Shown: positions 11,459 to 60,837 of the stretch, one piece after another
How the letters are laid out: every line of letters starts with the position of its first letter
Position numbering within the stretch: position 1 is the stretch's first letter
Assembly (NCBI RefSeq): GCF_036365525.1
Contig: NC_090374.1
Location: forward strand, 15,169,168-15,233,167
Reading direction: 5' to 3'
Length of the DNA: 64,000 nucleotides
DNA from: Heterodontus francisci
Lineage: Eukaryota
Notes under the pieces: model-generated
What the model saw: the letters and a program-made list of their open reading frames with translations, nothing else
Database searches by the model: none
What the model was told of the DNA's origin: nothing
Program-made: the position numbers and the translations under genes

Positions 11459-11487
11459 CTTTCATCTTTTTTCCCGCCAACCCAACC

Positions 11488-14835: not shown

Positions 14836-15748
14836 GAAAGGAAAATCTATCATTATTTGGAAGAATCTGGCTTTGTCTCTCCTGTACAGAAGATTCCTTG
14901 GCGGGGTTGCCGAGATTGGTAATTCATGAATCTTCCATTCTGGGGCACGCGGCACTGTGCATTGGAGTTCTGGTTCAATATTCACATTTTAACTTCATCA
15001 AAACTGTTATAAAACACAGGGAGCCTTGTCACACGCAGAGAATCACACATCACTCACATTGTGTGGTGGCCTTGATGACAGTCGCATAAATTACATCTGA
15101 AAAACAAACCACTCTGTTTTAGGATTATTTTCTAATTCTGTTTTTTGAGATTCTACAACTTTGTTCAGGCACAATTGAGAGGAAATCGTTCAAAATCTCA
15201 TGGACTATTAAATGTGTATAGTCCGATTGGTTTGGCTGCAGCTACAACTAGAGCTGCCAGCCAACCATTGTGATCACATTGTTCTTAAATTGATTAATTG
15301 CTGACAAGAAAGCTAGTGTTCAAATCAAAACATGTACGTGTTAAACAAATACATGTATAACACATGTAAGGATCATTGTTCCTTGGCACCTCTAAGTTAT
15401 TGCTAGACAAGTTCATTGGCACTATGTGGAAACTGGGACTGTGGAAAAAGGAGTTTGAACACATTAAGGAGGAGCTGTTGATCTGATAGGTCTCTCCCTT
15501 TTGTATAAGTTCACCACATTGTGTAAAACCCCAAATGATCCATTGAGAGTATGGTGGAATTGAACTTTCACCTTCCCCATAACCATGTGACAGATCTTGG
15601 AGGTGTGGGCTTGCTGCATTACAACAATGCCCACACCTCGAAAAGTACTTCATTGGCTGTGAAGCACCTTGGGGCAATCTGAGGACGTGAAAGGTGACAT
15701 ATAAATGCAAATTATTTAATAGGGATAGGTTGCTGTCTCTGTAGTCTA

Positions 15749-21086: not shown

Positions 21087-24000
21087 CTTTAAAGACACAT
21101 AGAGAAAATAACGATGAACCCAAATGTCCTCTGTTATTGACAATGTGCCCCATTGAATTGGTGATTGCACAACAAGCTAGATCCTAGTCAAGAGAATCCC
21201 ATTGTCCAATCAACTGAAAGGCCATTTAACACAACAGGAACAAACGTGCTCAGCAATTACTCTGCAAGGCTAAAGATTCAGGATTTTGCCTTTTTAAACT
21301 AAAAACCTTGGGAGATGGGCAAATATTTCTCTGGGATGTGATCCCTGCATTTTCACCAGGATCACTCCCATTAGGGAGTGATCACTGCCCCTGACCCCCA
21401 TCGTGTATGCAGGGTCAATGGGAAGTCATGTGAGTTCTCATGGACAAAGACGAGAGTGGTCCGAAAGGAAGAGTGCTAAATTGGGGGAAGGCCAACGATA
21501 CCAAAATTCGGCAGGAGCTGGGAAATGTAGATTGGGAGCAGCTGTTTGAAGGTAAATCCACATTTGATATGTGGTCGGCTTTTAAAGAGAGGTTGATTAG
21601 CGTGCAGGAGAGACATGTTCCTGTGAAAATGAGGGATAGAAATGGCAAGATTAGGGAACCATGGATGACAGGTGAAATTGTGAGACTAGCTAAGAGGAAA
21701 AAGGAAGCATACATAAGGTCTAGGCGGCTGATGAAAGACGAAGCTTTGAAAGAATATTGGGAATGTAGGACCAATCTGAAACGAGGAATTAAGAGGGCTA
21801 AAAGGGGTCATGAAATATCTTTAGCAAACAGGGTTAAGGAAAATCCCAAAGCCTTTTATTCATATATAAGGAGAAAGAGGGTAACTAGAGAAAGGATTGG
21901 CCCACTAAAGGACAAAGGAGGAATGTTATGCTTGGACTCAGAGAAAATGGGTGAGATTCTAAACGAGTACTTTGCATCGGTATTCACCGAGGAGAGGGAC
22001 ATGACGGATGTTGAGGTTAGGAACAGATGTTTGATTACTCTAGGTCAAGTCGGCATAAGGAGGGAGGAAGTGTTGGGTATTCTAAAGGGCATTAAGGTGG
22101 ACAAGTCCCCAGGTCCGGATGGGATCTATCCCAGGTTACTGAGGGAAGCGAGAGAGGAAATAGCTGGGGCCTTAACAGATATCTTTGCAGCATCCTTAAA
22201 CACGGGTGAGGTCCCGGAGGACTGGAGAATTGCTAATGATGTCCCCTTGTTTAAGAAGGGTAGCAGGGATAATCCAGGTAATTATAGACCGGTGAGCCTG
22301 ACGTCAGTGGTAGGGAAGCTGCTGGAGAAGATACTAAGGGATAGGATCTATTCTCATTTGGAAGAAAATGGGCTCATCAGTGATAGGCAACATGGTTTTG
22401 TGCAGGGAAGGTCATGTCTTACCAACTTAATAGAATTCTTTGAGGAAGTGACAAAGTTGATTGATGAGGGAAGGGCTGTCGATGTCATATACATGGACTT
22501 CAGTAAGGCGTTTGATAAGGTTCCCCATGGCAGGCTGATGGAGAAAGTGAAGGCGCTTGGGGTCCAAGGTGTACTAGCTAGATGGATAAAGAACTGGCTG
22601 GGCAACAGGAGACAGAGAGTAGCAGTAGAAGGGAGTTTCTCAAAATGGAGACGTGTGACCAGTGGTGTTCCACAGGGATCCGTGCTGGGACCACTGTTGT
22701 TTGTGATATACATTAATGATTTGGAGGAAAGTATAGGTGGACTGATTAGCAAGTTTGCAGACGACACTAAGATTGGTGGAGTAGCAGATAGTGAAGGGGA
22801 CTGTCAGAGAATACAGCAGAATATAGATAGACTGGAGAGTTGGGCAGAGAAATGGCAGATGGAGTTCAATCAGGGCAAATGCGAGGTGATGCATTTTGGA
22901 AGATCCAATTCAAGAGTGAACTATACAGTAAATGGAAAAGTCCTGGGGAAAATTGATGTCCAGAGAGATTTGGGTGTTCAGGTCCACTGTTCCCTGAAGG
23001 TGGCAACGCAGGTAAATAGAGTGGTCAAGAAGGCATACGGCATGCTTTCCTTCATCGGACGGGGCATTGAGTACAAGAGTTGGCAGGTCATGTTACAGTT
23101 GTATAGGACTTTGGTTCGGCCACATTTGGAATACTGCGTACAGTTCTGGTCGCCACATTATCAAAAGGATGTGGATGCTTTGGAGAGGGTGCAGAGGAGG
23201 TTCACCAGGATGTTGCCTGGTATGGAGGGCGCTAGCTATGAAGAGAGGTTGAGTAGATTAGGATTATTTTCATTAGAAAGACGGAGGTTGAGGGGGGACC
23301 TGATTGAGGTGTACAAAATCATGAGAGGTATAGACAGGGTGGATAGCAAGAGGCTTTTTCCCAGAGTGGGGGTTTCAATTACTAGAGGACACGAGTTCAA
23401 AGTGAAAGGGGAAAAGTTTAGGGGGGATATGCGTGGAAAGTTCTTTACGCAGAGGGTGGTGGGCACCTGGAACGCATTGCCAGCGGAGGTGGTAGATGCG
23501 GGCACGATGGAGTCTTTTAAGATGTATCTAGATAGATACATGAATGGGCAGGAAGAAAAGAGATACAGAACCTTAGAAAATAGGCGACATGTTTAGAGAG
23601 AGGATCTGGATCGGCGCAGGCTTGGAGGGCCGAAGGGCCTGTTCCTGTGCTGTAATTATCTTTGTTCTTCTTTGAGTTCCACATATTGCCACGATGGGCA
23701 ACCCTGACTGTCAATATTTAAAAGGTACTCCATCATGTCAGTTGTACTTATGTGAAAGGTTTACTCTTCAAATAAAGTAGAAATTATGGTTGGCTGCTAT
23801 CTGTTCACTGCTAGCTCTGGAGTCACCATTCCTTACCTGTCTCTGCTTGGTGGGGTCTTAGAATATTTACATTGCCGTGGAGAGAGACATGTTCAGATTC
23901 CTGTGGATCTGTAAAGGACACAGTCAGTTACTTTCTTCTTTCATCCTTATCTTCAAAGCCTTTCTACAATTTATTGGTTATAATAATGAATCCAACTTGC

Positions 24001-30000: not shown

Positions 30001-33000
30001 GTGGTGGTCTAGCATGACACTCTCGTCGGCTAGAATGCAGCCACGTTGTTCAGGGGATAGAATAAAGAACTGCAGCAACCTGGACTCCCGGAGGATAAAG
30101 GAGTTCTGGCATCGGCCAGGAAAGTGAATGCACACATGTCGGAGGCTTGTTGTGGTCGCAGACCAGCTGAATGTGCAGCGACTGGTACCCATTCCTGTTG
30201 ATGAATTTCCCTGGCCAATCGCTTGGCACATTGATGGCCACAAGGGTGGAATCAATGATGCCCTGCATCATTTGGGGAATCCAGCAATGGAGGCGAATCC
30301 CACTGGCCTTTGTGCCTGCAAGGCCTCATCTATTTGAAATTGTATGTACTGCCCAGGTCTCACAAATAGGGCAGCAGTGACCTGCTAGCTGCAATGGGTT
30401 GCATCTTGTGAGAGGCCGCTTGTGAGAGGCCACTAAAGTCCATTGCTAATCCTTGGAAGGAGCCAAAGGCGAGGTAATTCAAGGCCACAATGACTTTGGA
30501 AGCGACTGTCGGGCATGGAGAACAGTACTGCAAGGTGTGAGGTCTTCCTCAACGAGGGCACAAATCTCAGTGTTCATCTGCTTAGAGAGGCGCAGTCTCC
30601 TGGGGCCTTATGGCTGGAGCTCTATCTCTGTTCCTGAGGATGTCGATCCTCATTGCCACTCGACCCAATATCTGAGTACCTTAATCCCATGTCTACCTGT
30701 TGCCTTGCTCACGCTCAGCTGCACTCACCCACCCTCCTCTGATGACCCCATGATCCCTGGAGGGTCATGACCTTTTCCGCTGCCCAAGTGTGCTCAGACC
30801 ACTCGCTGTGCAACCTCTGCTCACCCGATGGCACCTGTGTGCCAGTGACTGAGTGACCCTCTTAGCCATGCACCCTTTTATTGGCCCAACTAATTGCATG
30901 GAGTGGCCATGACTGGCTCCTCATGACTGTGTGCTGCCTCATAGGAACATAAGAGCATAAGAAATAGGAGCAGGAGTAGGCCATTCAGCCCCTCAAGCCT
31001 GCTCTACCATTCAACTAGATCATGGCTGATCATCTACCTCAACATTACTTTCCTGCACTGTCCCCATGTCCCTTGATATATTTAACATCTAGAAATATAA
31101 TGATTTCTGTCTTGAAAAATAGGCTCAACATTTGAGCCTCCACAGCCCTCTGAGGTAGAGAATTCCACAGATTCACCACCCTCTGAGTGAAGAAATTCCT
31201 CCTCTTCTCAGTCCTAAATGTCCTATCTCTTATTCTGAGATTGTGTCTCCTGGTTCCAGGCCCCCAGCCAGAGGAAAAATCCTTCCTTCATCCACCCTGT
31301 CGAGCCCTGTAAGAATTTTGTAAGTTTCAATGAGATCACCTCTCATTCTTCTAAACTCTAGAGAATACAGGCCCAGTATCCTCAATCTCTCCTCATGGGA
31401 CAAACCCACCATCCCACGGAATAGTCTGGAGAACCTTCATTGCCCTCCCTCTATGGCAAGTATAGATAAGGAGATCAAAACAGTACACAATGCTCCAGGT
31501 GTGATCTCACCAAGGCTCTATACAATTGCAGCAAGACACCTTTAGTCCTGTACTCAAATCCTCTTGCAGTAAAGGCCATACCATTTCCCTTCCTAATTGC
31601 TTGCTGTACCGTATGTTAGCTTTCAGTGACTCATGAACAAGGACACCCAGGTCCTGAACAAGGACACCCAGGTCCTGAACAAGGACACCCAGGTCCTGAA
31701 CAAGGATACCCAGGCCTCTAAGCACATGGACTGTTGCTGATACAGCATTCAACCCGTGTGTCCCCACCAACGTTCCAAACTGGCTCTTGACAAGATGGCA
31801 ATAAGTTCATCAACAAGATTACTTGGCCACGTCTCCAAATTGGGCAGGTTGCCGGGGCCTGCCCTGAGGAAAGTGGCTGGCTGGTATGCCATCCGGCGGT
31901 GCCAATTTTCATGTCCGCCCATCTCCGCATGAGCCCCCATCAGGGCTGAAAAATCCTGCTCTCTGTTTCTCTCTCCACAGATGGTGCTAGACCTGCTGAG
32001 TATTTCCAGCAATTTCTATTTTTATTTAACATAACCTCTCTGCTTTTCTATTCTATCCCTCTAGAAACGAACCCCATTTCTTCGATAGTTTTTTAAAAAT
32101 AGTCTTACTAACCTGTGTTGCTACTTTTAGTGATCTGTGTCCCTTTACCCCTAGACCTTGCTGTTCCTTTATCCCATTTAGATGCTTATTTTCCAAGGAC
32201 GATGTGGCCTCAATAATCCTCCTACCAAAATGCACAACCTCACACTTATTTATGTTGAAGTTCGTTTGTCATTTGCACCCATTCTGCAAGTTTATTAATG
32301 CTTCGTTGTATTTTGCCGCAGTTCTCCTCTGTGTTAACTACACCTTCCAATTTGTCCACAAATTTTGAAATTGTAGTTCCAATTCCTACGTCCAAATTAA
32401 TTATGTAAACTGTGAATAAGAGTGGTCCCATCCGCAGTCCTTAACCACTGCGCTCTATTTTCTGTTTTGAAGTGGATTTACCTGTCTCTGCTTGCTGTAA
32501 TTTTGTAAAATTCACAACACTGTAAACAGGATTACTTTCAGCTCCCGGTGGATCTATCAAAGACAAAAATGGAAGAAAATATGGATTTTTTAAAATGGAG
32601 AAACACAGGTGAAATGACGACAATACTATCAAGGATGAAATAGTTGCAGAGAGAAGGAGGTAAATCACAAACTAATGATTGGGGATGCCAAACATGGCTT
32701 TTAAAAACCTTTAGCTTTTGAGTTTTAGCTGTGGCTCAGTGGATAGTGCTCTCACCGTCATGTCTGAAGATCATGGATTCAAATTCCATTCCAGATATTT
32801 GAGCACATAATCCAGACTGACACCCCTAAGTGCAATACTGAGGGAGTGCCGCCTTGTCAGAGGTGCCGTCCTTCAGATGAGACAAACTGAGGCTCCATCT
32901 GGTCTCTCAGTTAACAATCCCATGGCCACTTCTTTGAAGAAGAGCAGGGGTGTCCTCCCGGGTGCCCTGGCTAACATATATTTCTCAAACCTAAATTAGA

Positions 33001-36000: not shown

Positions 36001-39000
36001 TGTTAGGGAATATGGGATTAATGCAGGAGGGGATGTGGTAGGGAATATGGGATTAATGTAGGATTAGTTTAAATGGGTGGTTGATGGTCAGCACAGACTC
36101 GGTGGGCCGAAGGGCCTGTTTCAGTGCTGTATCTCTCTATGACTCTATGACTAAAATGGTGGGGGAGTGACGGTGAGAAAAAGAGAAAATCATATTGTGG
36201 GGAGACAAAACGCAGACTGGGTTTTCGCTTTGTGGAACGCCTCCACTCAGTCTGCAAGCATGACCCTGAGCTTCCAGTCGCCTGTCATTTTAATTCTCCA
36301 TGTGGCTCCCACTCTGACCTCTCTGTTCTCAACTGCCTGCAGTGTTCCAATGAAGCTCAATGTAAGCTCGGGGAACAGCGCCTCATCTTTCGATTATGCA
36401 CTTTACAGCCTTCCAGGCTCAACATTGAGTTCAATAATTTCAGACCGTAATCTCTGCCCCCATCTTGTTTCCTTTTCTTTGCTGAGTTTGGCTTTTCTCT
36501 CTTTTTTGTTTTCAGTCCATTATTCTGTCATTCTCCCCCGTCATATCTTTTGTTTCTTTACTTGTCTTTTCAGAGTCATGAGGGGTCTGGACAGAGTAGA
36601 TAGAGAGAAACTGTTCCCACTCATGAAAGGATCGAGAACGAGAGGGCACAGATTTAAAGTAATTGGTTAAGAGAAGCAAAAGTGACTTGAGGAAAAACTT
36701 TTTCACGTAGCGAGTGGTTAAAGTCAGGAATGCGCTGCCTGAGAATGTGGTGGAGACAGGTTCAATTGAAGCATTCAAAAGGGAATTAGACTGTTATAGG
36801 AAAAGGAAGAATGTGCAGGGTTACAGGGAGAAGGTGGGGGAATGGAACTGAGTGAATTGCTCTTTTGGAGAGCCGGTGCAGATACGATGGGCTGAATGGC
36901 CTCCCTCTGCACTGTAATGATTTTGTGATTCTGTTGTTCCATCACCACTCCATCTGGCCTTGCACCATTAAACCGTTTGTCGTTTGCTCTCTCCTGCCCT
37001 CCACCCTATCTCAGACCTTCCCTTTTGTTATTTTTCCCACCCTCCCCCATTTCACTTGCTTAAAACTGGTTACATTCCGAACGTTTACATTTCCAACTTT
37101 TCCCAGTTCTGATAAAAGGTCACTGACCTGAAACATTAACTCTGTTTCTCTCTCCACTCACAATGCCTGACCTGCTGAGCAGTTCCAGTATTTTCTGTTT
37201 TTACTTTGAGCTTAAGGTATGTACATCTAAGAATGTTCTCAGTGCAAAGCAGGGGTTTGTCTCATTACCTGTCTCTGCTTGCTGTGACACGGTATCATGA
37301 GCAACACTGTTGCTTCCAGCTTCCTGCTGATCTGTCAAAGACACAGAAACGTAAGAGAGTATTTCCATAGAAATTGACAGAAATGACCATCAGGCAGTCG
37401 GCTATATAATAGCAGGTGATCTGCTCCATCAGTTTACTTACTAAGGATTCCCCTCCCCACACCTCCCACCCAGACAAGATCTAACAAGCCAGCTATTGTG
37501 CTGTGCATGAAATTGTGCCCAGACGACTCTCCAATATCTCTGTGCTCCTCTAACTCTTGCACATCCCAGTATTCACCGCTCCACCATTGGTGGCTGTACC
37601 TTCAGCCTTTAGCGGGTACTTTAGACAAAATTAAACTGACGGACATAGACATACATGAGCTACAGTTTGCAGATGACTGCAGTGCCATTGTCCACTCTGC
37701 ACCAGGTTTGCAAGCCCTCTCAATCTCTTCAATTCTGCATACGAGAAACTCCTGGCCTTGAATGTCGCCAAAACAAAACTGATGTATTAACCCACACGAG
37801 GACCAATGGCAGAAACTCGTGACCCTGAGTAGACGTCATCCTCGAATCACGGGAATGCCGATGGACTAACAATCCAGACATCTGGACCAATGATTCAGAG
37901 ATGTGACCAGAAGTCCAACATCTCAACATCCCTTTCAGATTTTCCTGTCAGTGACTGGTCATGGAGAACTTCCCGCGTCCACATAGCAGGAAGGCAATTA
38001 AGGTATTAAAGAGCCCAACAGACAGCAATTTTACTCGTTGTGTCCGATTTAACTAATGGAGCACAGGAACCATGGAGCTTCACAGCCTCGCCTGGTGAAA
38101 GGTGGTGACAAATACTCAGAGGAGTGCAGTCATAGCCAAGTTTGTGGCACCACAGGTGGCTCAGTTGCACAGGAGGGGAGGAAGAAGAGTGGAAGAGCAG
38201 TCGAGATAGGGGATTAATTGGTTATAGGAGCAAACAGGCGTTTCTGCGGCTGTAGATGTGACTCCAGGATGGTGTGTTGTCTCCCTGGTGTCAGGGTCAA
38301 GGATGTCACGGAGCAGCTGCAGGACGTTCTTCAGAGGTTGTGGTCCACATTGGTACCAATGACATAGGAACAGGGATGAGGTCCTAATAGCAGATTTTAG
38401 GGAGCTAGGAAGGAGATGAAAAAGCAGGACCTCAAAAGTTGTAATCTCGGGATTACTCCCAGTCTCACATGCTAGTGAGCATAGGAATAGGAGAATTGAA
38501 CAATTGAACACATGGCTGGAGAACTGGTGTAGGAGGGAGGGCAAATGATTTCTGAGGCATTGGGTTGTTCCTGGGGCAGGTGGGACCTTTACAAGATGGA
38601 CAGGTTGTATCTTAGCAGGACTGGGACGAATATCCTTGCAGGGAGATTTGCTAGTGCTGTTGGGGAGGGTTCAAACTAGATTATTAGGGGGATGGGAACC
38701 TGAGAGGGAGCTCAGATTGGAGGGAATCAAAACTGGTAACAGGAAGTAGAACAGTAGTAAGTGAAATTAGAAGACAGCCAAAGCAAAGGCAAACATCAAT
38801 CGGATCAGAATGCAGAATCATGTTAAAAATGCAGAATTAAAGACACTCTACCTGAATGCACACAGCATTCACAACAATGTTGATGATTTGTCCACACAAA
38901 TTCAGGTAAATGGATATGATTTAATTGCCATTACAGAGACGTGACTACAGGCTGACCAAGATCGGTAACTTGGATATTCATCATTTAGGAAAGATAGGCA

Positions 39001-42000
39001 AAAAAAGAAAAGGAGGTGGAGTTAGCACTCTTAATAAGGGATGAGGTCAGTACATTAGTGAGAGAGGATCTTAGATCAAAGGATCAAGACGTGGAATCTG
39101 TTTGGGTGGAGCTAAGAAACAGCAAGGGGCAGCAAACATTGGTGGGATTTGTTTCTTGGCCAATAGTGGTAATGTGAAGCATGGTATTAATCAGGATATT
39201 AGAGAAGCCAAGCCAAAAAGACGTCCTGCCTATCACACAAATGAGTAATGTGATATATGAATTTCAATGCCAGTCTGATACTAGGTATATAGGCCGTACG
39301 TCCCAAAGACTGGCAGATCGTATCAAACAACATGTCCCTTCTGCTATTCGCAACGGGCAAGGTACAGGCCGTACCCAACCAGCCCGTGGTTGCAAAACTC
39401 AAAACACAGTTTCCAATATTATATGTGATTCTGCGATTGGACAATATTTGCTAAATAATCCTCAGTGTGCTAAGAATTACGATTTAAGATAGTCAGTAGG
39501 GCTCACAGTGTGATGCATTTGTGCCTACTGGAAGCTACATATATTAATACACAGGGCCCTGTTCTTTGCAGGCAGAAAGAACATGTACACACATTATGCC
39601 TGTTTCAGCTAAACAAAATAAGTGACAGCCATTTGCTGGTTCATTCCTTAGGACAATGCCTTGACCAATTAGAGTCAAGCTGCCTGGTTTAAATTTCAAA
39701 CAAAGCTTGGCAGTTAAACTGTCAGTCACCACAAACTGGTGCATTCTCCATGGCAATGCCTCCACCAATCTGATTCCACTTGCCAACCAATCAGCACTGT
39801 CTTCTCATACAGTATAAATTTGTTGCTTTCCCTTGCATGGGTATTCTGTGAATTGTCCTGATGAGTGCAAGATGAAAAGATTCGACAAAATGTCTCTGTT
39901 TTCAGAAATACTGAAATTAGTATTATTAATGAGGTAGTATTTGAAAAGTTAACCGGATTGAATGTTGATAAATCTCCTGGACCAAATGAGCTACATCCCA
40001 GAGTATTGAAGGAGGTGGTTATAGGGATAGTGGATGCATTGGTGGTTATCTTTCAAACTTCTATAGATTCTGGCAAGGTTCCTGTAGACTAAAAAGTAGC
40101 AAATGTAACCCCACTTTTTAAGAAGGGAGGGAGAGGGAGAATGGAGAACTACAGACCTGTTAGTTTGACATCAGTAGTGGGGAAAACGTAAGAATCTATT
40201 ATAAAGGATGTGATAACTGGACACTTGGAAAATAACGGTAAAATTGTGCAGAGTTAACATGGATTTATGAAAGGGAAATCATGTTGGACAAACCTGTTGG
40301 AGGATTTTGAGGATGTAACTGGCAGAATAGATAAGGGGAAATTGGTGTATTTGAATTTGCAGAAGGCTGGATGGGAAGCTTTGGCAGGCCAGAGTCTGGT
40401 CCGCGGGTCATATGTTGGACAACCCTGGTCTTATTTAATTAAAGGGTGATCTAATTGAGGTGGTCAAGGTGATTAAAGGAGTTGATAGGGTAGATAGAGA
40501 GAAACTATGTCCTCTGGTGGGGGAGTCCAGAACAAGGGGACATAACCTTAAAAGTAGTGTTAGGCCATTCAAGGGTGATGTCAGGAAGCATCTCTTCACA
40601 CAAAGAGTCATGATAATCTGGAATTCTCCCCGAAAAGCTGTTGAGACTGGGGAGTCAAATAGAAGTTTAAAAACTGAGATCTTTGTTAGGCAACGGTATT
40701 AGGGTTAAGATACAGATCAGCCATGTTCTAACTGAATGACAGAACAGGTTCAAGGGGCTGAATGGCCTCCTCCTGTTATGAAAACTAGAAGATGTCAGAA
40801 TATTACTATGATGTTGCCACACCAGTCGAGTTTTTATTGTGAAGCTTACCTCTCTTCAACCACCAGATAGTAAAACAAATTAAAAGAAAGAAGATAATTA
40901 AAATGGCAGGCCAAATGTAGAGAACAATATTCAACTTGTCCTTTTCATCAGCGGAGAAGTGGATTTGACAGACGTCTCTCCCGTGTTCATTTACAGCCAC
41001 ACAGCTGTAGGTCCCTCTCAGTGTTGGGTTAAGAAACTCTCCTACAGTTTGATGTTTGTCCGGCACTCGTGTGACTGTTGCACTGTTGCTGTCCTCAGTC
41101 AATGTGTTGTTTTCAGGGTCAATCCATGTGATGTTGGCAGGTGGCTCCCCTTCAACCCTGCACATGATGGTGTCTCCACTTATATTATCATTCACAGCTG
41201 ACAGTTCCAGGATGGTGGCTGGGGCTTGGGCAAGAAAGTTACAATGAGTTAACTCAGACTAACAGATATTGGCATTACGATTGCTGAATTCCCCACCATC
41301 AACATCATGGGGGTTACCATTGACCAGAAATTGAATTGGACCAGCCATATAAATGGCTCTTGTGGCTACAAGAGCAGGTCAGAGACTGAGAATTCTGCTG
41401 TGAGTAACTCACCTCCTGACTCCCCAAAGCCTGTCCACCATCTACAAGGCACAAGTCAGGAGTGTGATGGAATATTCTCCACTTGCCTGAATGGGTGCAG
41501 CTGCAACAACACTCAAGAAGCTCGACACCATCCAGGATAAAGCAGCCCGCTTGATTGGCACCCCATCCACCACCTTCAACATTCACTCCCTTCACACAAT
41601 GGCAGCAGTGTGCACCATCTACAAGATGCACTGCAGCAACGCACCAAGGCTCCTTAGACAGCACCTTCCAAACCCGCAACCTCTACCACCTAGAAGGACA
41701 AGGGCAGCAAATGCATGGGAATACCCCCACCTGCAAGTTCCCCTCCAAGTCACACACCATCCTGACTTGGAACTATATCGTCGTTCCTTCACTGTCGCTG
41801 GGTCAAAATCCTGGAACTCCCTTCCTAACAGCACTGCGGATATATCTACCCCACATGGACTGCAGCGGTTTAAGGAGGCAGCTCACCACCACCTTAATAA
41901 ATGCTGGCCTAGCCAGCGACGCCCACATCCCATGAATGAATAAATTTTTTTTTATAGGAACATAGGAGCAGGAGTTGGCCACTTAGCCACCCGAGCCTGT

Positions 42001-45000
42001 TCTTCCGTTCAATGAGATCAGGGCTGATCCGTGACCTGAATCTATACACCCACCTTTGCCCCATATTCCATAATAATTTTCGTTCACAAAAATCCATCAG
42101 TCCCAGTTTCGAAATTAACAATTGATTCAGCATCAATTGTCATTTGTGGAAGAGTTCCAGACTTCTACCGCCCTTTGTGTGTAGAAGTGTTTCCTAATTT
42201 CACTCCTGAAAGGACTGGCTCTAATGTTTAGACTATATCCCCAAGTCCTGGACTCCCCAACCAGAAAAAATAGTTTTTTTCTCTCTCTACCTTATCTGTT
42301 CCCCTGAATCGTTTGAAAACTTTGAACAAATCACCCCTTAACCTTCTAAATAAAACCCTAGTTTGTGCAATCTCTCCCTGTAATTTAACCCTTGGAGTCC
42401 AGGTATCATTCTGGTAAATCTATGTGGCACTCCCTCCAAGACCAGTATATTCTTCCTAAGGTGTGGTGCCCAGAATTGTTCACTGTACTCCAGGTGTGGT
42501 CTAACCAGGGCTTTGTATAGCTGAAACATGACTTCTACCCCTTTGTATTCCATTCCTCTAACATAAAGGCCAGAATTCCATTAGCCTTCTTGATTATTTG
42601 CTGGACCTGTTCATGACATTTTAATGATCTATGAACCTGGCCCCCCAAGTCACTATGGATCACCACTGTTTCTAACCTTTAACCTTGAACCAATATTAAA
42701 GGTGCATGGTGGCAAGATCCATTATGTGACACTGAGAAGCACATGCGCAGAGAGAGGTGGCAGCTAACATCCAGAGATTGAATTGTAATGTTTAGTGAGG
42801 GAATGGATTGACTCCTGATAAACGGGGACATGGGTTTGATGTTAATGGAACAGACGAATGGAATTAGCCTGAGAGAGTCTGTGGCCTAGAGAATGGATCC
42901 TCTAAACGGCCTCCTAAGCTCCGATATGGTGGACAGGAAGTGCTGCTCAACCTGAGCTGGAAAGACACCTCCCGCCCTGTTGGTCAAGGCCAATAATTCA
43001 GTGCACATTGTCCACAGATAGAAATAGCACTAAAGGGTCAGTGGAAGCCAGGGTTCATGAATTGGAACTACAGTGGTTTAGGTCTGTCTCAAGTCTCAGC
43101 TCATCCCTGGGATTGAATTTGCTCTTCTGTTTGTTCAACATGTTTTATCATTTACCCCACATTGTTGACATTGACGTTTCCTTACCGACAACCTGTAGTT
43201 TTATCCCATCCTGCGTCACATTTTCCCCTCCCCCATTCTTGACGTGTACATGACAGAAGTAGTCACTGGAGTCATTCAGCTGCAGGTCCTTCATCCGTAT
43301 GGAGGCATTGCCTTGGGTTAGGTTTCCGATCAGTTCATACCGATTGTCTTCATTTACAGTAGCTAGGTCAGTATAGTAAGAACCAGGACTGCGGGTATGA
43401 GTGTGATTAAAAACAGTGAACTCTTTGTGTGGATTCTCCTTCATCCAGAGGACAGTGATGGAGGTCACATTCAAGTCAGGGAGATTGAAGGTGCAGGACA
43501 ATAGAACATAGAACATACAGCACAGAACAGGCCCTTCGGCCCACAATGTTGTGCCGATCCTTTGTCCTCTGTCAAGGACAATTTAATCTATACCCCATCA
43601 TTCTCCTTTATCCATATACCTATCCAAAAGCCTTTTGAAAGTCCCTAAAGTTTCTGACTCAACAACTTCCCCGGGCAAGGCATTCCATGCCTCGACCACT
43701 CTCTGGGTAAAGAACCTTCCCCTGACATCCCCCTTATATCTCCCACCCTTCACCTTAAATTTATGACCCCTTGTAACGCTTTGCTCCACCCGGGGAAAAA
43801 GTTTCTGACTGTCTACCCTATCTATTCCCCTGATCATCTTATAAACCTCTATCATGTCACCCCTCATCCTTCTCCTTTCTAATGAGAAGAGGCCTAGAAT
43901 GTTCAGCCTTTCCTCGTAAGACTTATTCTCCATTCCAGGCAACATCCTGGTAAATCTCCTCTGCACCCTCTCCAAGGCTTCCACATCCTTCCTAAAATGA
44001 GGCGACCAGAACTGCACACAGTACTCCAAATGAGGCCTTACCAAGGTCCTGTACAGCTGCATCATCACCTCACGGCTCTTAAATTCAATCCCTCTGCTAA
44101 TGAACGCTAACACCCCATATGCCTTCTTCACAGCCCTATCCACTTGAGTTGCAACTTTCAATGATCTATGCACATAGACCCCAAGGTCTCTCTGCTCCTC
44201 CACATGCCCAAGAACCCTACCGTTAACCCAGTATTTTGCATTCATGTTTGTCCTTCCAAAATGGACGACCTCACACTTTTCAGGGTTAAACTCCATCTGC
44301 CACTTTTCAGCCCAGCACTGCAACCTATCCAAGTCCCCCTGCAGACGACAATAGCCCTCCTCGGTATCCACAACTCCACCAACCTTTGTATCATCTGCAA
44401 ATTTACTGACCCACCCTTCGACTTCCTCATCCAAGTCGTTAATAAAAATCACAAACAGGAGAGGACCCAGAACTGATCCCTGCGGCACGCCACTGGTAAC
44501 TGGGCTCCAGGCTGAGTATTTACCATCTAAGACCACTCTCTGCCTTCTATCAGTTAGCCAATTCTTAATCCAACTGGCCACATTCCCCACTATCCCATGC
44601 CTCCTGACTTTCTCCATAAGTCTACCATGGGGGACCTTATCAAATGCCTTACTAAAATCCATGTACACCACATCCACTGGTTTACCCTCATCCACTTGCT
44701 TGGTCACCTGCTCAAAGAATTCAATCAGGCTTGTGAGGCAAGACCTACCCCTCACAAAACCGTGCTGACTGTCCCGAATCAAGCAGTGTCTTTCCAGATG
44801 CTCAGAAATCCTATCCCTCAGCACCTTTTCCATCAACTTGCCTACCACCGAAGTAAGACTAACTGGCCTGTAATTCCCAGGGTTGTTCCTATTCCCTTTC
44901 TTGAACAGGGGCACAACATTTGCCACCCTCCAATCACCTGGTACCACCCCCGTCAGCAGAGAAGATGAAAAGATCATTGCCAGCGGCTCTGCAATTTCAT

Positions 45001-48000
45001 CCCTTGCTTCCCATAACATCCTTGGATATACCCCGTCAGGCCCGGGAGACTTGTCTATCTTCAAGTTATTCAAAAACCCCAACACATCTTCCCTCCTAAC
45101 GAGCACTTCCTCGAGCTTACCAGTCTGTTTCACACCGTCCTCTTCAGTAATACACCCCTTCTCATTCGTAAATACCGAAGAGAAGTACTCATTCAAAACC
45201 TCACTTATCTCTTCCGGCTCAACACACAGTCTCCCGCTATTGTCCTTGACCGGACCTATGGTCCCCCTGGTCATCCTCATATTTCTGACATACGCGTAAA
45301 AGGCCTTGGGGTTTTCTTTTATCCTACCCGCCAAGCATTTTTCATGCCCTCTCTTAGCTCTCCTAATCCCTTTCTTCAGATCCTTCCTGGCCATCTTGTA
45401 TCCCTCCAGAGCTATGCCTGTGCCCTTTTTCCTCAACTTTATATACGCATCCTTCTTCTTCCTAACAAGACTCTCAACCTCTCTTGTCAACCACGGTTCC
45501 CTCACATGACCATCCCTTCCCTGTCTGACAGGGACATGCTTATCAATGGCCCCTACTATCTGCTCCTTGAAAAAGTTCCACATTTCGACCGTGCCCTTCC
45601 CTGCCAGCATATGCTCCCAACTTATGCTCCTCAGTTCCTGCCTGACAGCATCATATCTACCCTTCCCCCAATTGTAAACCTTGCCCTGTTGCACATACCT
45701 ATCCCTCTCCATTACCACAGTGAATGCTACAGAATTGTGATCACTATCTCCAAAGTGCTCGCCCACCAACAGCTCTATCACTTGCCCTGGTTCATTACCT
45801 AGTACCAAATCCAATATTGCCTCCCCTCTGGTCGGGCAGTCTACATACTGAGTCAGAAAAGCTTCCTGGACATACTGCACAAACACTACCCCATCCAAAC
45901 TATTCGATCTAAAGAGTTGCCAATCAATATTTGGGAAGTTGAAATCCCCCATAATTACTACCCTGTGACTTCTGCTCCTTTCCAATGTGGCAGAATCTCC
46001 CTTCTTCCCAATCACTGGCCACATATTGTTCTTATTAGCTGAGGATAGAGAAGGGTTCCAAAGAAAGTACATTATTCTTTCGGGCAATTACATTGAATAG
46101 AGTTTATACAATGTATATCTTCCTGTGCACTGTGAGCTTATCTCTGATGGCAGTGCAGGAACACAACAGCAACCTGCTGTAATGTAATGAAACATCCCAA
46201 AAGCAGCATTATCAGACAAAACTTCACACTGAGTCACATAAGGAGATCTTCAGACAGGTCAAAGCTTGGTTAAAGTGGTAGGTTTTAAGGAGTGTCTTAA
46301 AAGAGGAGAGAGAGGTAGGTGGAGAAATGAGGAAGGGAATTCCAGAGTTTAGGCCTAGCCGGTTGAAGGTGAAAAGCAAATGTGTCGCGCAGGCAGCTTT
46401 TGGACACCGTTTGAGCTTGGACATAGACAGCTCATCTCTTAGCCACGTACTGGGCAGCAGTGTACCTCCCTCACGCTCGGCCTCTACACACCGTCCCCTC
46501 AGAGCAGGCAGGGCCCCAGACTGATTAACAAAGGTGGGAGTGAAAATCTTATACATTTCCTTTTCAAGTATTTATCCAATTCCCATCTGGAAGTTACGAT
46601 CGAATCTGCTTCCACCGCCCTTTCAGGCAGCACATTCCAGATCACAACAACTAGCTGCGTAAAATAAAACTCATCTGTCTGTTTATCTCAAATTAACTCA
46701 AACCTGTGTCCTCCGGTTCCGGTTACCAACCCTCCTGTCCATGGGAACAGTTTCTCTAGATTTACTCTATTAGAACTCTTCATAGTGTTAAACAGCTCTA
46801 CTAATTCTCATCCCTGCCATTCTAGTAAATCTCCTCCGCACTCTCTCCAAGTCCTTTACATCCTTTCTAAAGTGTGTTGCCCAGAATTTCACACATAATA
46901 ACTTCCTTTTGTTCTCTAAACCTCCAGTAATAAAGCCAAGAATCCCTTATACTTTTTAACAGTGTTATCAAGTTGTCCTGCCACCTTCTATTGTTTGTTT
47001 ATGTGAAGCCCCGGCTCTGTATCTCTCCATCCCCTTTAAAATTGCACCATTTAGTTTATATTGCTTCTCCTCATTCTGCCTTCCAAAAATAAAAAATCAC
47101 TTCATCCTTTCTCACAACAAGCCAGCCCATGAAACATTGGAAGATCTTCCTCTTTGAAAAGACTTCCTCTTGTTCCAGTGAAGTAGAGCCCATGACTGAA
47201 TGCAGAGGATCTTTTTCAATGTGAGACCTGACGAATTCCGGATCAAAATCAGACCTGATAACAACATGGACATTCCAGAAACATTTTGAGGTCTAACACC
47301 TCCAATGCAGGAGCATGGTTTGTGACTGGACAGACAGTGATTTAATGATTGTGTTGCAGGTTTAGTAATCTAAAGGCCTGGGTAAATAATTCTGTAAGTG
47401 TAAGTTCAAATCTCCCCATAGACATACAAACTTACCAATTCAGTTAGGAAAAAACTAAAATGCTGGCATCAGTAAAATGACCCATGAAGGTGTTGGATTT
47501 TTGTTTTTAAAAACAAAAACCAACTGTTCACTAATGTTCAGCTTGGCCTGGTCTAGATGTGATTTCACTTCCACCATCTCTGAAGGGTGATGAGGCATTG
47601 CCAGTGATGCCCACAAACCAAGAAGCAATTCTTAAAAACATACATGTATGTGCTCCAGTTGCTTCACAGCTCAATCTTATATCGAGTTTGAATTATTCCT
47701 TACCTATCATCTTGACAACTCCAAGCTCATGTTCAAATTTTGCTTTCTTTCTGTCTTTGGGATTCACACGACAAATATATTTGTTAATTGTGTCCTCTTT
47801 CCTCAGCTTTTTGATGATCATGGAAGCATTGTTCTCTCTCGGGTTCCCCGTCGCTTGGTAACTCTTGTTAATATTCTGGTGGATCAGATTCTGAAACCCA
47901 TGGTTCTGCGAGTTTGGAGATGGATAATTTGTGTAATTAAAAATCGCTTTTGCATTTCCATCTTTCCACGTGACGGTGATGTTACCTTTATATCCAGGGT

Positions 48001-51000
48001 GAGGGTGAGTGAACTTGCAGAACAGGACCACAGGCTTCCCTTCCCTACCCGTCACCCTATCAGGGGTCTCCATGGTCCAGCCATGTTTACTGAGACCTGT
48101 GAGGACACATAGATTTCGTGTCAACCCTTAACTGAGGACAACAGTCAAACACAGCACAGACGAACCACAAAACATCCTGTTTGTCTAATGTCTTTCTGAT
48201 CTTCTTTGGCCTCCTTATCTCGAGAGACCATGGGTAAGCGCCCGGAGGTGGTCAGTGGTGTGTGGAGCAGCGCCTGGAGTGGCTATAAAGGCCAATTCTA
48301 GAGTGACAGGCTCTTCCACAGGTGCTGCAGAAAAATTTGATTGTCGGGGCTGTTACACAGTTGGCTCTTCCCTTGCACCTCTGTCTTTTTTCCTGCCAAC
48401 TGCTAAGTCTCTTCGACTCGCCACTCTTTAGCCCCGCCTTTATGGCTGTCCGCCAGCTCTGGCGAACGCTGGCAACTGACTCCCACAACTTGTGATCAAT
48501 GTCACAGGATTTCATGTCGTGTTTGCAGACATCTTTAAAGCGGAGACATGGACGGCTGATGGGTCTGATACCAGTGGCGAGCTCGCTGTACAATGTGTCT
48601 TTGGGGATCCTGCCATCTTCCATGCGGCTCACATGGCCAAGCTATCTCAAGCGCCGCTGACTCAGTAGTCTGTATAAGCTGGGGATGTTGGCCGTCTCGA
48701 GGACTTCTGTGTTGGAGATACGGTCCTGCCACCTGATGCCAAGTATTCTCCGGAGGCAGCAAAGATGGAATGAATTGAGACGTCGCTCTTGGCTGACATA
48801 CGTTGTCCAGGCCTCGCTGCCATAGAGCAAGGTACTGAGGACACAGGCTTGATACACTCGGACTTTTGTGTTCCGTGTCAGTGCGCCATTTTCCCACACT
48901 CTCTTGGCCAGTCTGGACATAGCAGTGGAAGCCTTTCCCATGCGCTTGTTGATTTCTGCATCTAGAGACAGATTACTGGTGATAGTTGAGCCTAGGTAGG
49001 TGAACTCTTGAACCACTTCCAGAGCGAGGTCGCCAATGTTGATGGATGGAGCATTTCTGACATCCTGCCCCATGATGTTCATTTTCTTGAGGCTGATGGT
49101 TAGGCCAAATTCATTGCAGGCAGCCGCAAACCTGTTGATGAGACTGTGCAGGCACTCTTCAGTGTGAGATGTTAAAGCAGCATCGTCAGCAAAGAGGAAC
49201 AAAGAACAAAGAACAAAGAAAATTACAGCACAGGAACAGGCCCTTCAGCCCTCCAAGCCTGCGCCGATCCAGATCCTCTATCTAAACATGTCGCCTATTT
49301 TCTGAGGGTCTGTATCTCTTTGCTTCCTGCCCATTCATGTATCTGTCTAGATACATCTTAAAAGACGCTATCGTGCCCGCGTCTACCACCCCCGCTGGCA
49401 ACGCATTCCAGGCACCCACCACCCTCTGTGTAAAGAACTATCCACGCATATCCCCCCTAAACTTTTCCCCTCTCACTTTGAACTCGTGACCCCTAGTAAT
49501 TGAATCCCCCACTCTGGGAAAAAGCTTCTTGCTATCCACCCTGTCTATACCTCTCATGATTTTGTACACCTCAATCAGGTCCCCCCTCAACCTCCGTCTT
49601 TCTAATGAAAATAATCCTAATCTGCTCAACCTCTCTTCATAGCTAGCGCCCTCCATACCAGGCAACATCCTGGTGAACCTCCTCTGCACCCTCTCCAAAG
49701 CATCTACATCCTTTTGGTAATGTGGCGACCAGAACTGCACGCAGTATTCCAAATGTGGCCAAACCAAAGTCCTATACAACTGTAACATGACCTGCCAACT
49801 CTTGTACTCAATACCCCGTCCGATGAAGGAAAGCATGCCGTATGCCTTCTTGACCACTCTATTGACCTGCGTTGCCACCTTCAGGGAACAATGGACCTGA
49901 ACACCCAAATCTCTCTGTACATCAATTTTCCCCAGGACTTTTCCACTTACTGTATAGTTCACTCTTGAATTGGATCTTCCAAAATGCATCACCTCGCATT
50001 TGCCCTGATTGAACTCCATCTGCCATTTCTCTGCCCAACTCTCCAATCTATCTATATTCTGCTGTATTCTCTGACAGTCCCCTTCACTATCTGCTACTCC
50101 ACCAATCTTAGTGTCGTCTGCATCAGGAGTTCCCTGATGAGGACTTTCCATACTTTGGACTTCGCTCTTAGACGGGCAAGGTTGAACAACCTGCCCCCTG
50201 ATCTTGTGTGGAGGAAAATTCCTTCTTCCGAGGACTTGAACGCATGTGAAAGCAGCAGGGAGAAGAAAATCCCAAAAAGTGTGGGTGTTTCACACCACTC
50301 AGGATAGGAAAGGGGTCTGATGAGGAGCCACCATGTTGAATTGTGCCTTTCATATTGTCATGGAATGAGGTGATGATACTTAGTAGCTTTGGTGGGCATC
50401 CAATCTTTTCTAGTAGTCTGAAGAGGCCACGTCTGCTGACGAGGTCAAAGGCTTTGGTGAGATCAATGAAAGCAATGTAGAGGGGCATCTGTTGTTCACG
50501 GCATTTCTCCTGTATCTGACGAAGGGAAAACAGCATGTCAACGGTCGATCTCTCTGCACGAAAACCACACTGTGCCTCAGGGTAGACGCGCTCGGCCAGC
50601 TTCTGGAGCCTGTTTAAAGCGACTCAAGCAAAGACTTTCCCCACTATGCTGAGCAGGGAGATTCCACGGTAGTTGTTGCAGTCACCGCGGTCACCTTTGT
50701 TTTTATAGAGGGTGATGATCTTGGCATCGCGCATGTCCTGGGGTACTGCTCACTCGTCCCAGCACAGGCATAGCAGTTCATGTAGTGCTGAGAGTATAGC
50801 AGGCTTGGCACTCTTGATTATTTCAGGGGTAATGCTGTCCTTCCCAGGGGCTTTTCCGCTGGCTAGAGAATCAATGGCATCACTGAGTTCCGATTTTGTT
50901 GGCTGTATACTGTGCTGAATTATGAGCAGTTGTGTGTTGTGTGTTCACGCTCAGTGGGAAATGGGTTGGAGTGCATCCATCTCACTGGACCAAGAGGAAC

Positions 51001-60000: not shown

Positions 60001-60837
60001 CTACTGCATATCCAAGTGTGATGGTTTCTGCCTTTACCACCCTTTCCGGCAGTGAATTCCAGACTTCCACCAGCTTCTGGATGAAAACAATTTACTCCTC
60101 AACTCACCTCTAATCCTTCCACCAATTTAAATCTGCATCCTTTGGTTGTTGACCTCTCTGCTAAGGGAAATAGGTCCTTCCTATTCACTCTATCGAGGCT
60201 CCTTTTAAGGTTATACACCTCAATTAAATTTTCCCTCAGCCTCCTCTGTTCCAAAGAAAACAACCCCAGCCTTTCTTCATAGCTAAAATTCCCCAGTCCT
60301 GACAACATCCTCGAAAACTTTTTCTGCACCCTCTCTAGTGCAATCACACCCTTCAAGTAATGCAGCGACCAGAACTGTCCGCAGTGCTCCAGCTTCAGTC
60401 TAACTAGTGTTTTACACTGTTCTAGCATAAACCCCCTTCTTTCATACTCTATGCCTCAGTTAACGAAGCAAATGATCCCATAAGCCTTCTTAGCCACTTT
60501 ATGTACCTGTCCTGCCATCATTGTAATCTCTCATGTTTCAAATTACTATTATTTATAAAGAAAGTTAAACCAAGCACACACACGAGCACAAAAACACACA
60601 CACGTTTAAGTATAAAGTACTTTTTTCCACTGGTAGGACAATTCTTGCCTCTATATCAGTACAATATTCAGTATAATACAAAGGAACCACGTCTTCTCAG
60701 TCTGCAGTGAGACCCAGTTCTTTCCTACACAGTAAAAGATTGTAACAGACAGAAAACAGACTCCAGTTTCTCACTGGAGAATACGCACGTTCTGCTGAGC
60801 CGGCCAGTGTGAGTGCACAAAACAAGATGCACAACAT
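21015..60837 (-). CDS. Siglec-15-like Ig-superfamily type I membrane receptor gene (leader, micro-exon, V1, V2 interrupted by CR1, C2+TM, four cytoplasmic exons)
   Basis: Collinear minus-strand exons with AG/GT boundaries; all internal exons are phase 1-1 and multiples of 3 nt. V1 and C2 motifs resemble mammalian Siglec-15 (CTFTHPH, GNP, YFCRV, EGEPP) as recalled. Orthology is not established, so no symbol is given. Confidence 0.8.
21438..23672 (+). mobile_element. Young 5'-truncated CR1 with uninterrupted 718-aa ORF2
   Basis: ORF 21440-23596 with KFADD; 7-bp TSD tgagttc at 21431-21437 and 23673-23679. Confidence 0.96.
23837..23908 (-). CDS. Cytoplasmic exon 3 DPQESEHVSLHGNVNILRPHQAET
   Basis: Acceptor tgtgtcctttacag, donor ACAG|gtaagg, 72 nt, paralogous to exons 1 and 2. 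Confidence 0.78.
24381..24416 (-). ncRNA. Minimal type I hammerhead ribozyme
   Basis: UUGUU CUGAUGA GUGCAAGAC GAAA AGCU UC GACAA. Confidence 0.75.
25446..25481 (+). ncRNA. Minimal type I hammerhead ribozyme
   Basis: UUGUC CUGAUGA GUGCAAGAU GAAA AGCU UC GACAA, with perfect stem I and palindromic stem III. Confidence 0.78.
26615..27035 (+). mobile_element. tRNA-derived SINE whose 3' end matches the LINE at 5090-5150
   Basis: A and B boxes; tail gggcaattagggatgggcaataaatgctggcc is shared with that LINE. Confidence 0.75.
29113..30019. mobile_element. Solo LTR (~907 bp) inside the Harbinger transposase
   Basis: TGTTATG...CATGACA ends, TSD ccct/ctct; removing it restores A-D-E-G-Y. Confidence 0.82.
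30941..31717 (-). mobile_element. CR1 3' fragment with a 4x21-bp tandem at its 5' end
   Basis: YSLEFRRMRGDLIE; tgaacaaggacacccaggtcc repeated at 31634-31717. Confidence 0.88.
32482..32553 (-). CDS. Cytoplasmic exon 2 DPPGAESNPVYSVVNFTKLQQAET (YxxV tyrosine motif)
   Basis: Acceptor ttttgtctttgatag, donor ACAG|gtaaat, 72 nt. Confidence 0.8.
32728..33150 (+). mobile_element. Deu-domain-type SINE (SacSINE1/AmnSINE-like)
   Basis: tRNA-like head gtggctcagtgg, core gagggagtgc..gtcagaggtgccgtc.ttcagatgagac, L2-like tail ctatataaatgcaag. Confidence 0.65.
33393..34275 (-). mobile_element. CR1 3' fragment
   Basis: FNAEKCEVIHF, RDLGV, YCVQFW. Confidence 0.88.
34480..35190 (+). mobile_element. Penelope-like element 3' end (second family)
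   Basis: LLQCSSEHQRKLEEQHLIFRLGTLQPAGLNIEFNNF followed by a pLTR-type tail. Confidence 0.75.
35465..35767 (+). mobile_element. CR1 3' fragment nearly identical to 53800-54100
   Basis: Direct sequence comparison. Confidence 0.92.
36190..37205 (+). mobile_element. Penelope-like GIY-YIG 3' end interrupted by a CR1 fragment (36573-36930)
   Basis: GET.RRLG.RF.E...PVACHFNS..LNIEFNNF. Confidence 0.75.
37269..37331 (-). CDS. Cytoplasmic exon 1 DQQEAGSNSVAHDTVSQQAET
   Basis: Acceptor tctgtgtctttgacag, donor ACAG|gtaatg, 63 nt. Confidence 0.75.
39204..39912 (+). mobile_element. Penelope-like element 3' part (same family as 24370-25502)
   Basis: NVIYEFQCQSDTRYIGRTSQRL. Confidence 0.88.
39853..39888 (+). 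ncRNA. Minimal hammerhead ribozyme, stem III palindrome mutated
   Basis: UUGUC CUGAUGA GUGCAAGAU GAAA AGAU UC GACAA. Confidence 0.65.
40850..41224 (-). CDS. Ig C2-set domain plus transmembrane exon
   Basis: Acceptor ttcttgcccaag, donor G|gtaagc, 375 nt. CRVEGEPPANITW..GTYSCVAVNEHG followed by uncharged TM IVLYIWPAILIIFFLLICFTIWWL and KR. Confidence 0.9.
41268..41945 (+). mobile_element. 3' fragment of the LINE family at 5090-8790
   Basis: GVTIDQKLNWTSHIN, LDTIQDKAARLIG. Confidence 0.88.
41955..42690 (-). mobile_element. CR1 3' fragment
   Basis: LVRPHLEYSEQFW. Confidence 0.85.
43186..43498 (-). CDS. Ig V-set exon 2, 3' part SCTFN..W..DYFCHVH..KLQVV
   Basis: Joins the 5' part to give a 369-nt open exon (SATL-SCTF); donor G|gtaagg. 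Confidence 0.9.
43503..45982 (-). mobile_element. Young CR1 with 794 open codons of ORF2 (partial EN plus complete RT) inside Ig V2 exon
   Basis: GDFN, SDH, GVPQGSVLGP, KFADD; (TATGTTC)n tail; TSD caat at 43499-43502 and 45983-45986. Confidence 0.97.
45983..46038 (-). CDS. Ig V-set exon 2, 5' part (A)NKNNMWPVIGKKGDSATL
   Basis: Acceptor cttctctatcctcag; V-set A'/B strand pattern G..GDSATL; ends at the CR1 insertion junction (ATTG duplication). Confidence 0.85.
47704..48096 (-). CDS. Ig V-set exon 1, Siglec-15-like, F-strand Arg retained (YICRV)
   Basis: Acceptor tgtgtcctcacag, donor G|gtaagg, 393 nt. Translation includes WTMETPDRV..VLFCKFTHPH..W..GNPRENNASMII..YICRVN. Confidence 0.9.
48200..50912 (-). 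mobile_element. RTE-clade LINE, RT region, interrupted by a CR1
   Basis: FIDLTKAFD, FADDAAL, C-terminal C2H2 motif. Confidence 0.92.
49199..50122 (-). mobile_element. CR1 3' fragment, same subfamily as 21438-23672
   Basis: Near-identical protein from ADDTKIGG onward; (TTCTTTG)n tail. Confidence 0.94.
51737..51769 (-). CDS. Candidate 33-nt linker micro-exon (R)KVQWRGNNEI
   Basis: Acceptor tttatttcttttgggctgcag, donor G|gtgtct (weak), phase 1-1, open frame between leader and V1. Confidence 0.45.
   Translation of the reverse strand, partial: GKCSGVEIMR
52088..54112 (+). mobile_element. Young 5'-truncated CR1 with open ORF2, inserted in a SINE (52020-54350)
   Basis: ORF open to 54033; TSD aact at 52084-52087 and 54113-54116; (TTCTAA)n tail. 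Confidence 0.95.
56112..56452 (-). mobile_element. HE1-like SINE
   Basis: Reverse complement of the SINE at 11488. Confidence 0.88.
57090..57693 (-). mobile_element. RTE-clade 3' fragment
   Basis: Near-identical to the 11751 and 48200 copies. Confidence 0.92.
59190..59912. mobile_element. GC-rich MITE inserted in a CR1 3' tail (CR1 spans ~59150-60520, minus)
   Basis: Ends ggtcagagttttcc and ggaaatttctgcc; CR1 tail sequence resumes after it. Confidence 0.55.
60789..60837 (-). CDS. Candidate signal-peptide exon MLCILFCALTLAGSAE
   Basis: ATG in AAAATG context, hydrophobic 16-aa leader, phase-1 donor C|gtgcgt. Confidence 0.65.

Follow-up and report, generated by a model that had tools for sequence, protein, structure and literature searches.

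A young LINE inside a V-set exon of a Siglec-15-related receptor gene of the horn shark, probably present as one of two alleles

The stretch analysed here, which we call the window, comprises 64,000 nucleotides of the horn shark Heterodontus francisci (GCF_036365525.1, contig NC_090374.1, positions 15,169,168 to 15,233,167 of the forward strand). Its minus strand carries a gene for a receptor with two V-set domains (V1, V2) and a C2-set domain, and the exon for V2 is interrupted by a long interspersed nuclear element (LINE). The question raised by this locus is whether a transposon can be seen in the act of removing a domain: the initial annotation proposed that skipping of the broken V2 would convert a V-V-C2 receptor to the V-C2 layout of Siglec-15, with the gene perhaps remaining functional. 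The reading that we favour, and consider rather likely, is that a young CR1 LINE lies inside V2 of a likely inhibitory member of a Siglec-15-related receptor pair, the insertion probably being one of two alleles. Skipping of V2 probably occurs, in transcripts that probably lack V1 too, and a functional loss of the domain is possible.

The exon design described initially holds good on the minus strand. V1 (47704..48096, 393 nt), V2 (369 nt without the insert) and the exon for the C2-set domain and transmembrane span (C2-TM; 40850..41224, 375 nt, matched by Pfam I-set/Ig) all have AG/GT ends, are in phase 1-1 and contain no stops. V2 is divided into a 5' part of 56 nt (45983..46038) and a 3' part of 313 nt (43186..43498), which is matched by Pfam V-set, has an intact donor, and carries a histidine in place of the sialic-acid arginine. 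Splicing of V1 to C2 does stay in frame, and would give an open frame of 356 aa from leader to tail, compared with 479 aa for the full form; leader-V2-C2 and leader-C2 forms would have 348 and 225 aa. It is the uniform phase-1 design that puts every exon skip in frame, and not the insertion.

The insert (43499..45982, minus strand) is a 5'-truncated LINE in the sense orientation, 2,480 nt long, followed by the second copy of a 4-nt duplication whose first copy lies in the 5' part of V2, so that 2,484 nt interrupt the exon. This 4-mer is single in the paralogue and doubled in the window gene. The remnant of open reading frame 2 (ORF2) of the LINE contains part of the endonuclease and the whole reverse transcriptase (Pfam Exo_endo_phos_2 and RVT_1), and the element ends in a short tandem-repeat tail. 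We take it to belong to the CR1 clade, a label without tree support; the features of a young CR1-type LINE are all there, namely an endonuclease-reverse transcriptase frame, 5' truncation, a tandem-repeat tail and a short duplication or end homology, and the element would have inserted through target-primed reverse transcription using short end homologies. All 12 copies fetched are 99.80-100% identical to it over 2,485 nt, and all extend further 5'; all 40 matches scored in the assembly (G000), out of 483 candidates and with the window itself as one of the 40, are 100% identical over 1,386 nt. This near-identity to other copies dates the insertion as very recent, as was claimed initially on different grounds. 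The grounds given then, that both halves of V2 are still open, are insufficient alone: they tell time poorly, since V2 would have to accumulate about 6% neutral change before the chance of a single stop reached 50%.

Evidence from RNA takes the form of assembled contigs, compared for five of 24 listed runs in two sets (X5, X6, X7 and X9 over 20 kb, and X5, X6, X7 and X10). Runs X8, X11 and X13 come from other organisms and X14, X19 and X20 gave small or unexplained shares, and these were not used. The contig records are filtered, so that gaps in cover are not proof of absence and joints near contig ends may go unlisted; the 20-kb comparison is dominated by repeats, with 15 of 65 joints visible, and the leader junction was neither seen nor excluded in it. 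X5 alone among the runs compared is clearly informative. In this run, one of four, a single contig of depth 6.9 joins 45983 to 43498, jumping exactly the 2,484 nt of the interruption, with four letters fitting both sides and the 56-letter 5' part of V2 on one side of the joint. The empty site is thus seen in one RNA-type contig. Over 417 nt, of which 104 belong to the following intron, this contig agrees with the window at every letter, and it starts 29 letters ahead of the V2 acceptor, which shows that V2 was spliced at its own acceptor. Two other sources for the contig were considered and ruled out: the paralogue differs at 8 of 56 and 30 of 366 V2 letters, and splicing-out of the LINE would find no GT-AG at any of the four positions to which the joint can slide, while the join restores the colinear sequence of the paralogue. 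The simplest source is a second, insertion-free allele. Because insertion-free V2 occurs in RNA, probably only one of two alleles carries the insertion, which would then not be fixed.

A further X5 contig covers the C2-TM exon exactly, with 29 other letters before it and 30 after, and both ends of this exon are therefore spliced. The locus is thus expressed and spliced in X5. The number of letters ahead of the exon is 29 for both V2 and C2. As both exons begin with C, the 29 letters would arise in each case from a shared upstream exon, and in a model of the assembly graph (k=31) the pattern is reproduced only if one exon feeds both. Two of the four models that were compared fit, these being the leader-fed and V1-fed models, which do so equally well, and the no-skip and all-junction models fail. 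A V2-skipping transcript is thus implied by contig geometry.

It is less clear which exon lies upstream. The V1-to-C2 junction (47704-41224) by which the initial annotation proposed to recognise skipping is not among the seven joints listed for X5, X6, X7 and X10; V1 is without cover in these four runs, which, the records being filtered, is not countable as absence. In X5 the depth of V1 is 0.17 and 0, where that of C2 is 10. V1 would have two letters in common with both acceptor flanks, where the leader has none, and the X5 pieces end exactly at the acceptors. This favours the leader, provided that loose contig ends are given in full, as seems to be the case at other places in the X5-X10 comparison. 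We therefore think that the exon joined to V2 and also, by a direct splice, to C2 is probably the leader; a diverged allele of V1 and the V1 of the window are each unlikely. A search among short contig-derived proteins for one that would name this exon gave two hits, neither from the window gene. It may be added that in X5 the low intron cover at 47442-47703 seems to end at about the V1 donor, with V1 itself uncovered, which would fit an expressed allele whose V1 is diverged or missing, or else uneven cover. Separately, annotated isoforms of the lysine type (described below) in two carpet sharks (P0011 and P0021) lose most of V1 and keep V2-C2, so that V1-less forms are on record in the family. 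One upstream exon would be spliced to both V2 and C2, with the skip permitted by the phase-1 design with or without the LINE, and nothing links the skipping to the insertion allele.

The initial annotation saw in the locus a transposon-driven domain loss in progress, which would mean that the LINE drives skipping of V2 on its own allele and leaves a working receptor of V1, C2, membrane span and immunoreceptor tyrosine-based inhibitory motif (ITIM). We regard this as unlikely, though it survives better than the other alternatives. The V1-C2 frame is open, the V1-fed graph model accounts for the two sets of 29 letters as well as the leader-fed one does, and the X5 contig was broken by no contig joining the tail of the LINE to V2. 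Moreover, an exon of 2.85 kb is a poor substrate for splicing. Against this are the unlisted junction and the depth of V1 next to that of C2; the X5 pieces end without the 2-letter extension that V1 would share, and no protein with the window's V1 was found among 10 hits in the protein collection.

The relatives bear on both sides. Among 41 family proteins retrieved, each unit has 0-3 copies of V1 and 1-3 copies of V2, so that the copy number of V2 does vary; all 28 that have V1 and C2 nevertheless keep an uninterrupted V2 directly before C2. Three Callorhinchus proteins that read at first as V1-C2 were rejected as exceptions, since V2 is present in them at 41% identity, just under the cut-off. 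V2 is also less constrained than C2: between the window gene and its lysine-type paralogue P0003 it has 26.5 replacement and 3.5 silent changes, compared with 1 and 3 in C2 (Fisher P 0.01-0.02), giving ratios of replacement to silent rates (dN/dS) of 2.3 and 0.1. Positive selection on V2 is not claimed, as P is about 0.15 against neutrality, and the pattern would fit relaxed constraint or diversifying selection. What stands of the original proposal is the recent insertion, an expressed and spliced locus, an uninterrupted V2 in relatives and an implied V2-less transcript; a tie of the skipping to the insertion allele is not supported.

Several points weigh against the reading in terms of two alleles and a shared upstream exon. 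All of the RNA evidence is from contigs of one run and one sample (S1), which is perhaps not the assembled animal, and the run type 'RNA' is a guess, although the contigs are spliced. The graph model predicts 28 letters after C2 where 30 are seen, and is thus incomplete, and the length of 502 letters used in it was fitted. The missing cover of V1 in X5 is no proof. The NCBI model P0004 from H. francisci, which begins within the 3' half of V2 and agrees with that exon at 100% identity where the two align, joins V2 to C2, is the sole member of its cluster and has no isoform label; a single V2-C2 model of this kind fits poorly with well-supported splicing from leader to C2. Finally, the insertion-free V2 could have come not from a second allele but from a duplicate gene that the assembly lacks.

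In this last case the insertion would be fixed, the window copy a fresh pseudogene or a spare, and the RNA the product of a near-identical duplicate absent from the assembly. The locus does belong to a tandem cluster, which contains at least 16 related V exons, a number of them on an unplaced contig; and if the duplicate had another V1, or none, the lack of V1 cover would be explained as well. We consider it improbable all the same: no second near-identical V2 is found in assembly G000, the contig agrees to the letter in intron as well as exon, and polymorphism is to be expected of an element that has dozens of identical copies.

On the insertion allele itself, the V2 acceptor would lead into an in-frame fusion with the LINE. 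The first 18 codons of V2 run in frame into the ORF2 remnant, and read-through would give 960 aa, ending in the LINE at a stop (43601-43603) from which it is another 415 nt to the V2 donor. A stop in this position invites decay of the transcript, by standard rules. Decay is the most likely outcome to be predicted, or else a product without a membrane span, and the allele is thus likely to be null or weak. The weakest alternative, very improbable in our view, is that the LINE is partly exonised through a cryptic donor at 44938, or that the read-through is secreted as a V1-reverse transcriptase fusion: the donor scores 6/7, is the one such donor in frame before the stop and would connect V1, together with 18 aa of V2 and about 349 aa of LINE protein, in frame to C2, and the insert has no AATAAA and a single ATTAAA at 43587, but an in-frame sense insertion has a chance prior of 1-in-6, chance would supply roughly one donor of this kind in 2.85 kb, no such joint is listed, and only the 56-letter piece covers 45966-46211 in X5.

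Contigs of the LINE subfamily are present in all of the runs compared, which are RNA-type (X5, X6, X7, X9 and X10). Their summed depth over 43508-46175 is above 200,000 in X9, compared with at most about 3,000 in X5-X7; contig depth is a poor measure of abundance, and the value in X9 may mark a tissue with a very active LINE family.

What kind of receptor is affected? V1 is matched by Pfam V-set, and its best match by sequence is human Siglec-15 (PDB 7zoz, E 3e-11, with CD33 at E 2e-4). The AlphaFold model of V1, which has a predicted local distance difference test score (pLDDT) of 87, also has 7zoz as its best fold match, with a template modelling score of 0.81. V1 has an arginine aligned to R143 of Siglec-15, through which sialic-acid binding is predicted, and two cysteines aligned to C64-C142 of 7zoz, which join the two sheets between strands B and F and would presumably form the same bond here. 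These are its only cysteines, so that the second disulfide of Siglec-15, C95-C104 (described in the part of PMC10264397 available), has no equivalent. Nor does the membrane span have the lysine by which Siglec-15 engages DAP10/DAP12, according to the accessible text of PMC7226832. With the extra V2 in its native V1-V2-C2 ectodomain, where Siglec-15 has one V and one C2, and with an ITIM in its tail, the window gene is related to Siglec-15 without being Siglec-15. The layout expected from V2 skipping would accordingly match Siglec-15 in its number of domains, as was proposed, and CD33 in its signalling: a V1-C2 product would be V-C2-membrane span-ITIM, and a leader-to-C2 product an ITIM isoform with C2 only. 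In CD33, a single-nucleotide polymorphism (SNP) allele reportedly alters the skipping of Ig exon 2 and yields a short isoform. Splicing is shifted there by a SNP and not by a LINE, and the window gene is closer to Siglec-15.

The initial annotation omitted the two ends of the gene, which are both on the minus strand. The leader exon (60789..60837, 49 nt, with an ATG, a signal-peptide-like sequence and a phase 1 donor) was found by tblastn with P0001, at 76% over 17 aa. Four cytoplasmic exons follow C2-TM, from 37331 down to 15050, the first three being located by matches to P0004: exon 1 (37269..37331, 63 nt), exon 2 (32482..32553, 72 nt), exon 3 (23837..23908, 72 nt) and the last coding exon (15050..15096), which contains the stop. 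The tail has one canonical ITIM (V-x-Y-x-x-V, following the signature as given in the available text of PMC7226832), completed by the last exon, and one ITIM-like tyrosine motif in exon 2, which is non-canonical in having proline at -2.

The gene has a likely partner. P0003 (L027-L028, G000:C4:15088537-15103566, plus strand) lies about 110 kb away on the opposite strand, and encodes V1-V2-C2 with a transmembrane lysine and no tail; its V1 is without the arginine. An ITIM gene linked to a transmembrane-lysine gene is a paired-receptor arrangement, in which the window gene is likely to be the inhibitory member, opposite signalling being suggested by the motifs. The two C2 domains are 99% identical in protein, and the homogenised tract stops just before the membrane span. 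Silent divergence (dS) is 0.375 in V1, 0.043 in V2 and 0.049 in C2. In the trees the two genes are joined at V2 (98/97) and C2 (99/98) and not at V1, where seven lysine-type shark proteins group together to the exclusion of the window's V1 (95/96). The pair of Heptranchias is joined in the same way at V2 and C2 (100/99 and 89/85), and the skate V2 and C2 are not grouped by species. Taken together, these comparisons indicate that V2 and C2, and not V1, have been homogenised by gene conversion between the members of the pair. The annotation of Callorhinchus includes both the inhibitory and the lysine type. Among non-lysine proteins 7 of 9 have the arginine, and among lysine proteins 2 of 11, with isoforms not collapsed, the lysine status of P0014 and P0069 set by eye, and P0173, which is unclear at this column, scored as lacking it.

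The neighbourhood contains other members of the family. Just left of the window, L034 (G000:C4:15161884-15168447, plus strand) is a native V-C2-membrane span gene resembling Siglec-15, with the arginine and without the lysine; it matches P0040 at 66-68% and is conserved in other sharks, so that the V-C2 layout is not new to the cluster. Between 13.39 and 14.94 Mb of G000:C4 and on C2279 there is a tandem cluster of near-identical genes (L003-L015, L018-L025), in which V1 has the arginine and a cysteine pair like the second disulfide of Siglec-15, and a separate V exon has no arginine; having retained the extra pair, genes such as L018-L025 are nearer to Siglec-15 than the window gene is. The V1 of L024 contains a stop. 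An orphan 3' fragment of a V1-like exon (L035, G000:C4:15234876-15235052, plus strand) lies upstream of the leader at a distance of about 5 kb, on the other strand. Within the window, the last intron contains open frames on the plus strand (16944-17415) that resemble a processed copy of a conserved cellular gene, perhaps an ELL-associated factor, and at 9980-11500 a GC-rich tandem array carries long open frames in both orientations.

It is known from the part of PMC9502224 available that exons can be broken, or made to be skipped, by the insertion of a retrotransposon, and skipping after LINE integration is among the recorded effects. As in the cases described there, a coding exon has here received a non-LTR element that is truncated at its 5' end and closes with a tandem-repeat tail; the present case differs in being an in-frame sense fusion of ORF2 with a receptor exon, and in being germline and apparently segregating, in a shark immune gene. 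For the pair, the closest parallels are Siglecs 5/14 and 11/16, which are neighbouring inhibitory and lysine-type genes with homogenised ectodomain exons, and in which loss-of-function alleles segregate in one partner (PMC4042635 and PMC5701461, in the text available). As those sources describe it, conversion there extends over domains one and two, the sialic-acid domain among them, and it is the activating gene that has the null allele, whereas in the shark the conversion covers V2-C2 and the damage is in the inhibitory gene. In the shark family, moreover, the arginine is mostly confined to non-lysine forms. Fish genomes are without inhibitory CD33-related Siglecs, as the accessible text of PMC7226832 has it, and a Siglec-15 relative bearing an ITIM would fill this role in sharks. 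The available part of PMC8455134 mentions Siglecs once in passing. No published description of the shark pair was found in a literature thinly covered for subscription journals, nor anything relevant on horn shark CR1 or elasmobranch Siglec-15, and the paired receptor is apparently undescribed.

A more speculative reading would bring these elements together. The pair would have been kept since before the chimaera split, with the inhibitory V1 mainly holding the sialic-acid site; the fast-changing V2 shared by both members would be grabbed by microbes, and the LINE allele would strip V2 by skipping to give a CD33-like receptor that evades the hijack and continues to sense self. This is a long shot, but if true it would be a transposon-made immune escape caught before fixation. 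By itself the insertion is ordinary: an immune gene has one of its alleles damaged by a young LINE. Since intact and damaged alleles appear to coexist, the locus offers a direct test of whether a LINE in an exon makes a shorter working receptor. Of greater interest is the system that it has entered, a Siglec-like pair of inhibitory and activating receptors that extends from chimaera to sharks and rays, in which gene conversion appears to have spared the domain that bears the arginine.

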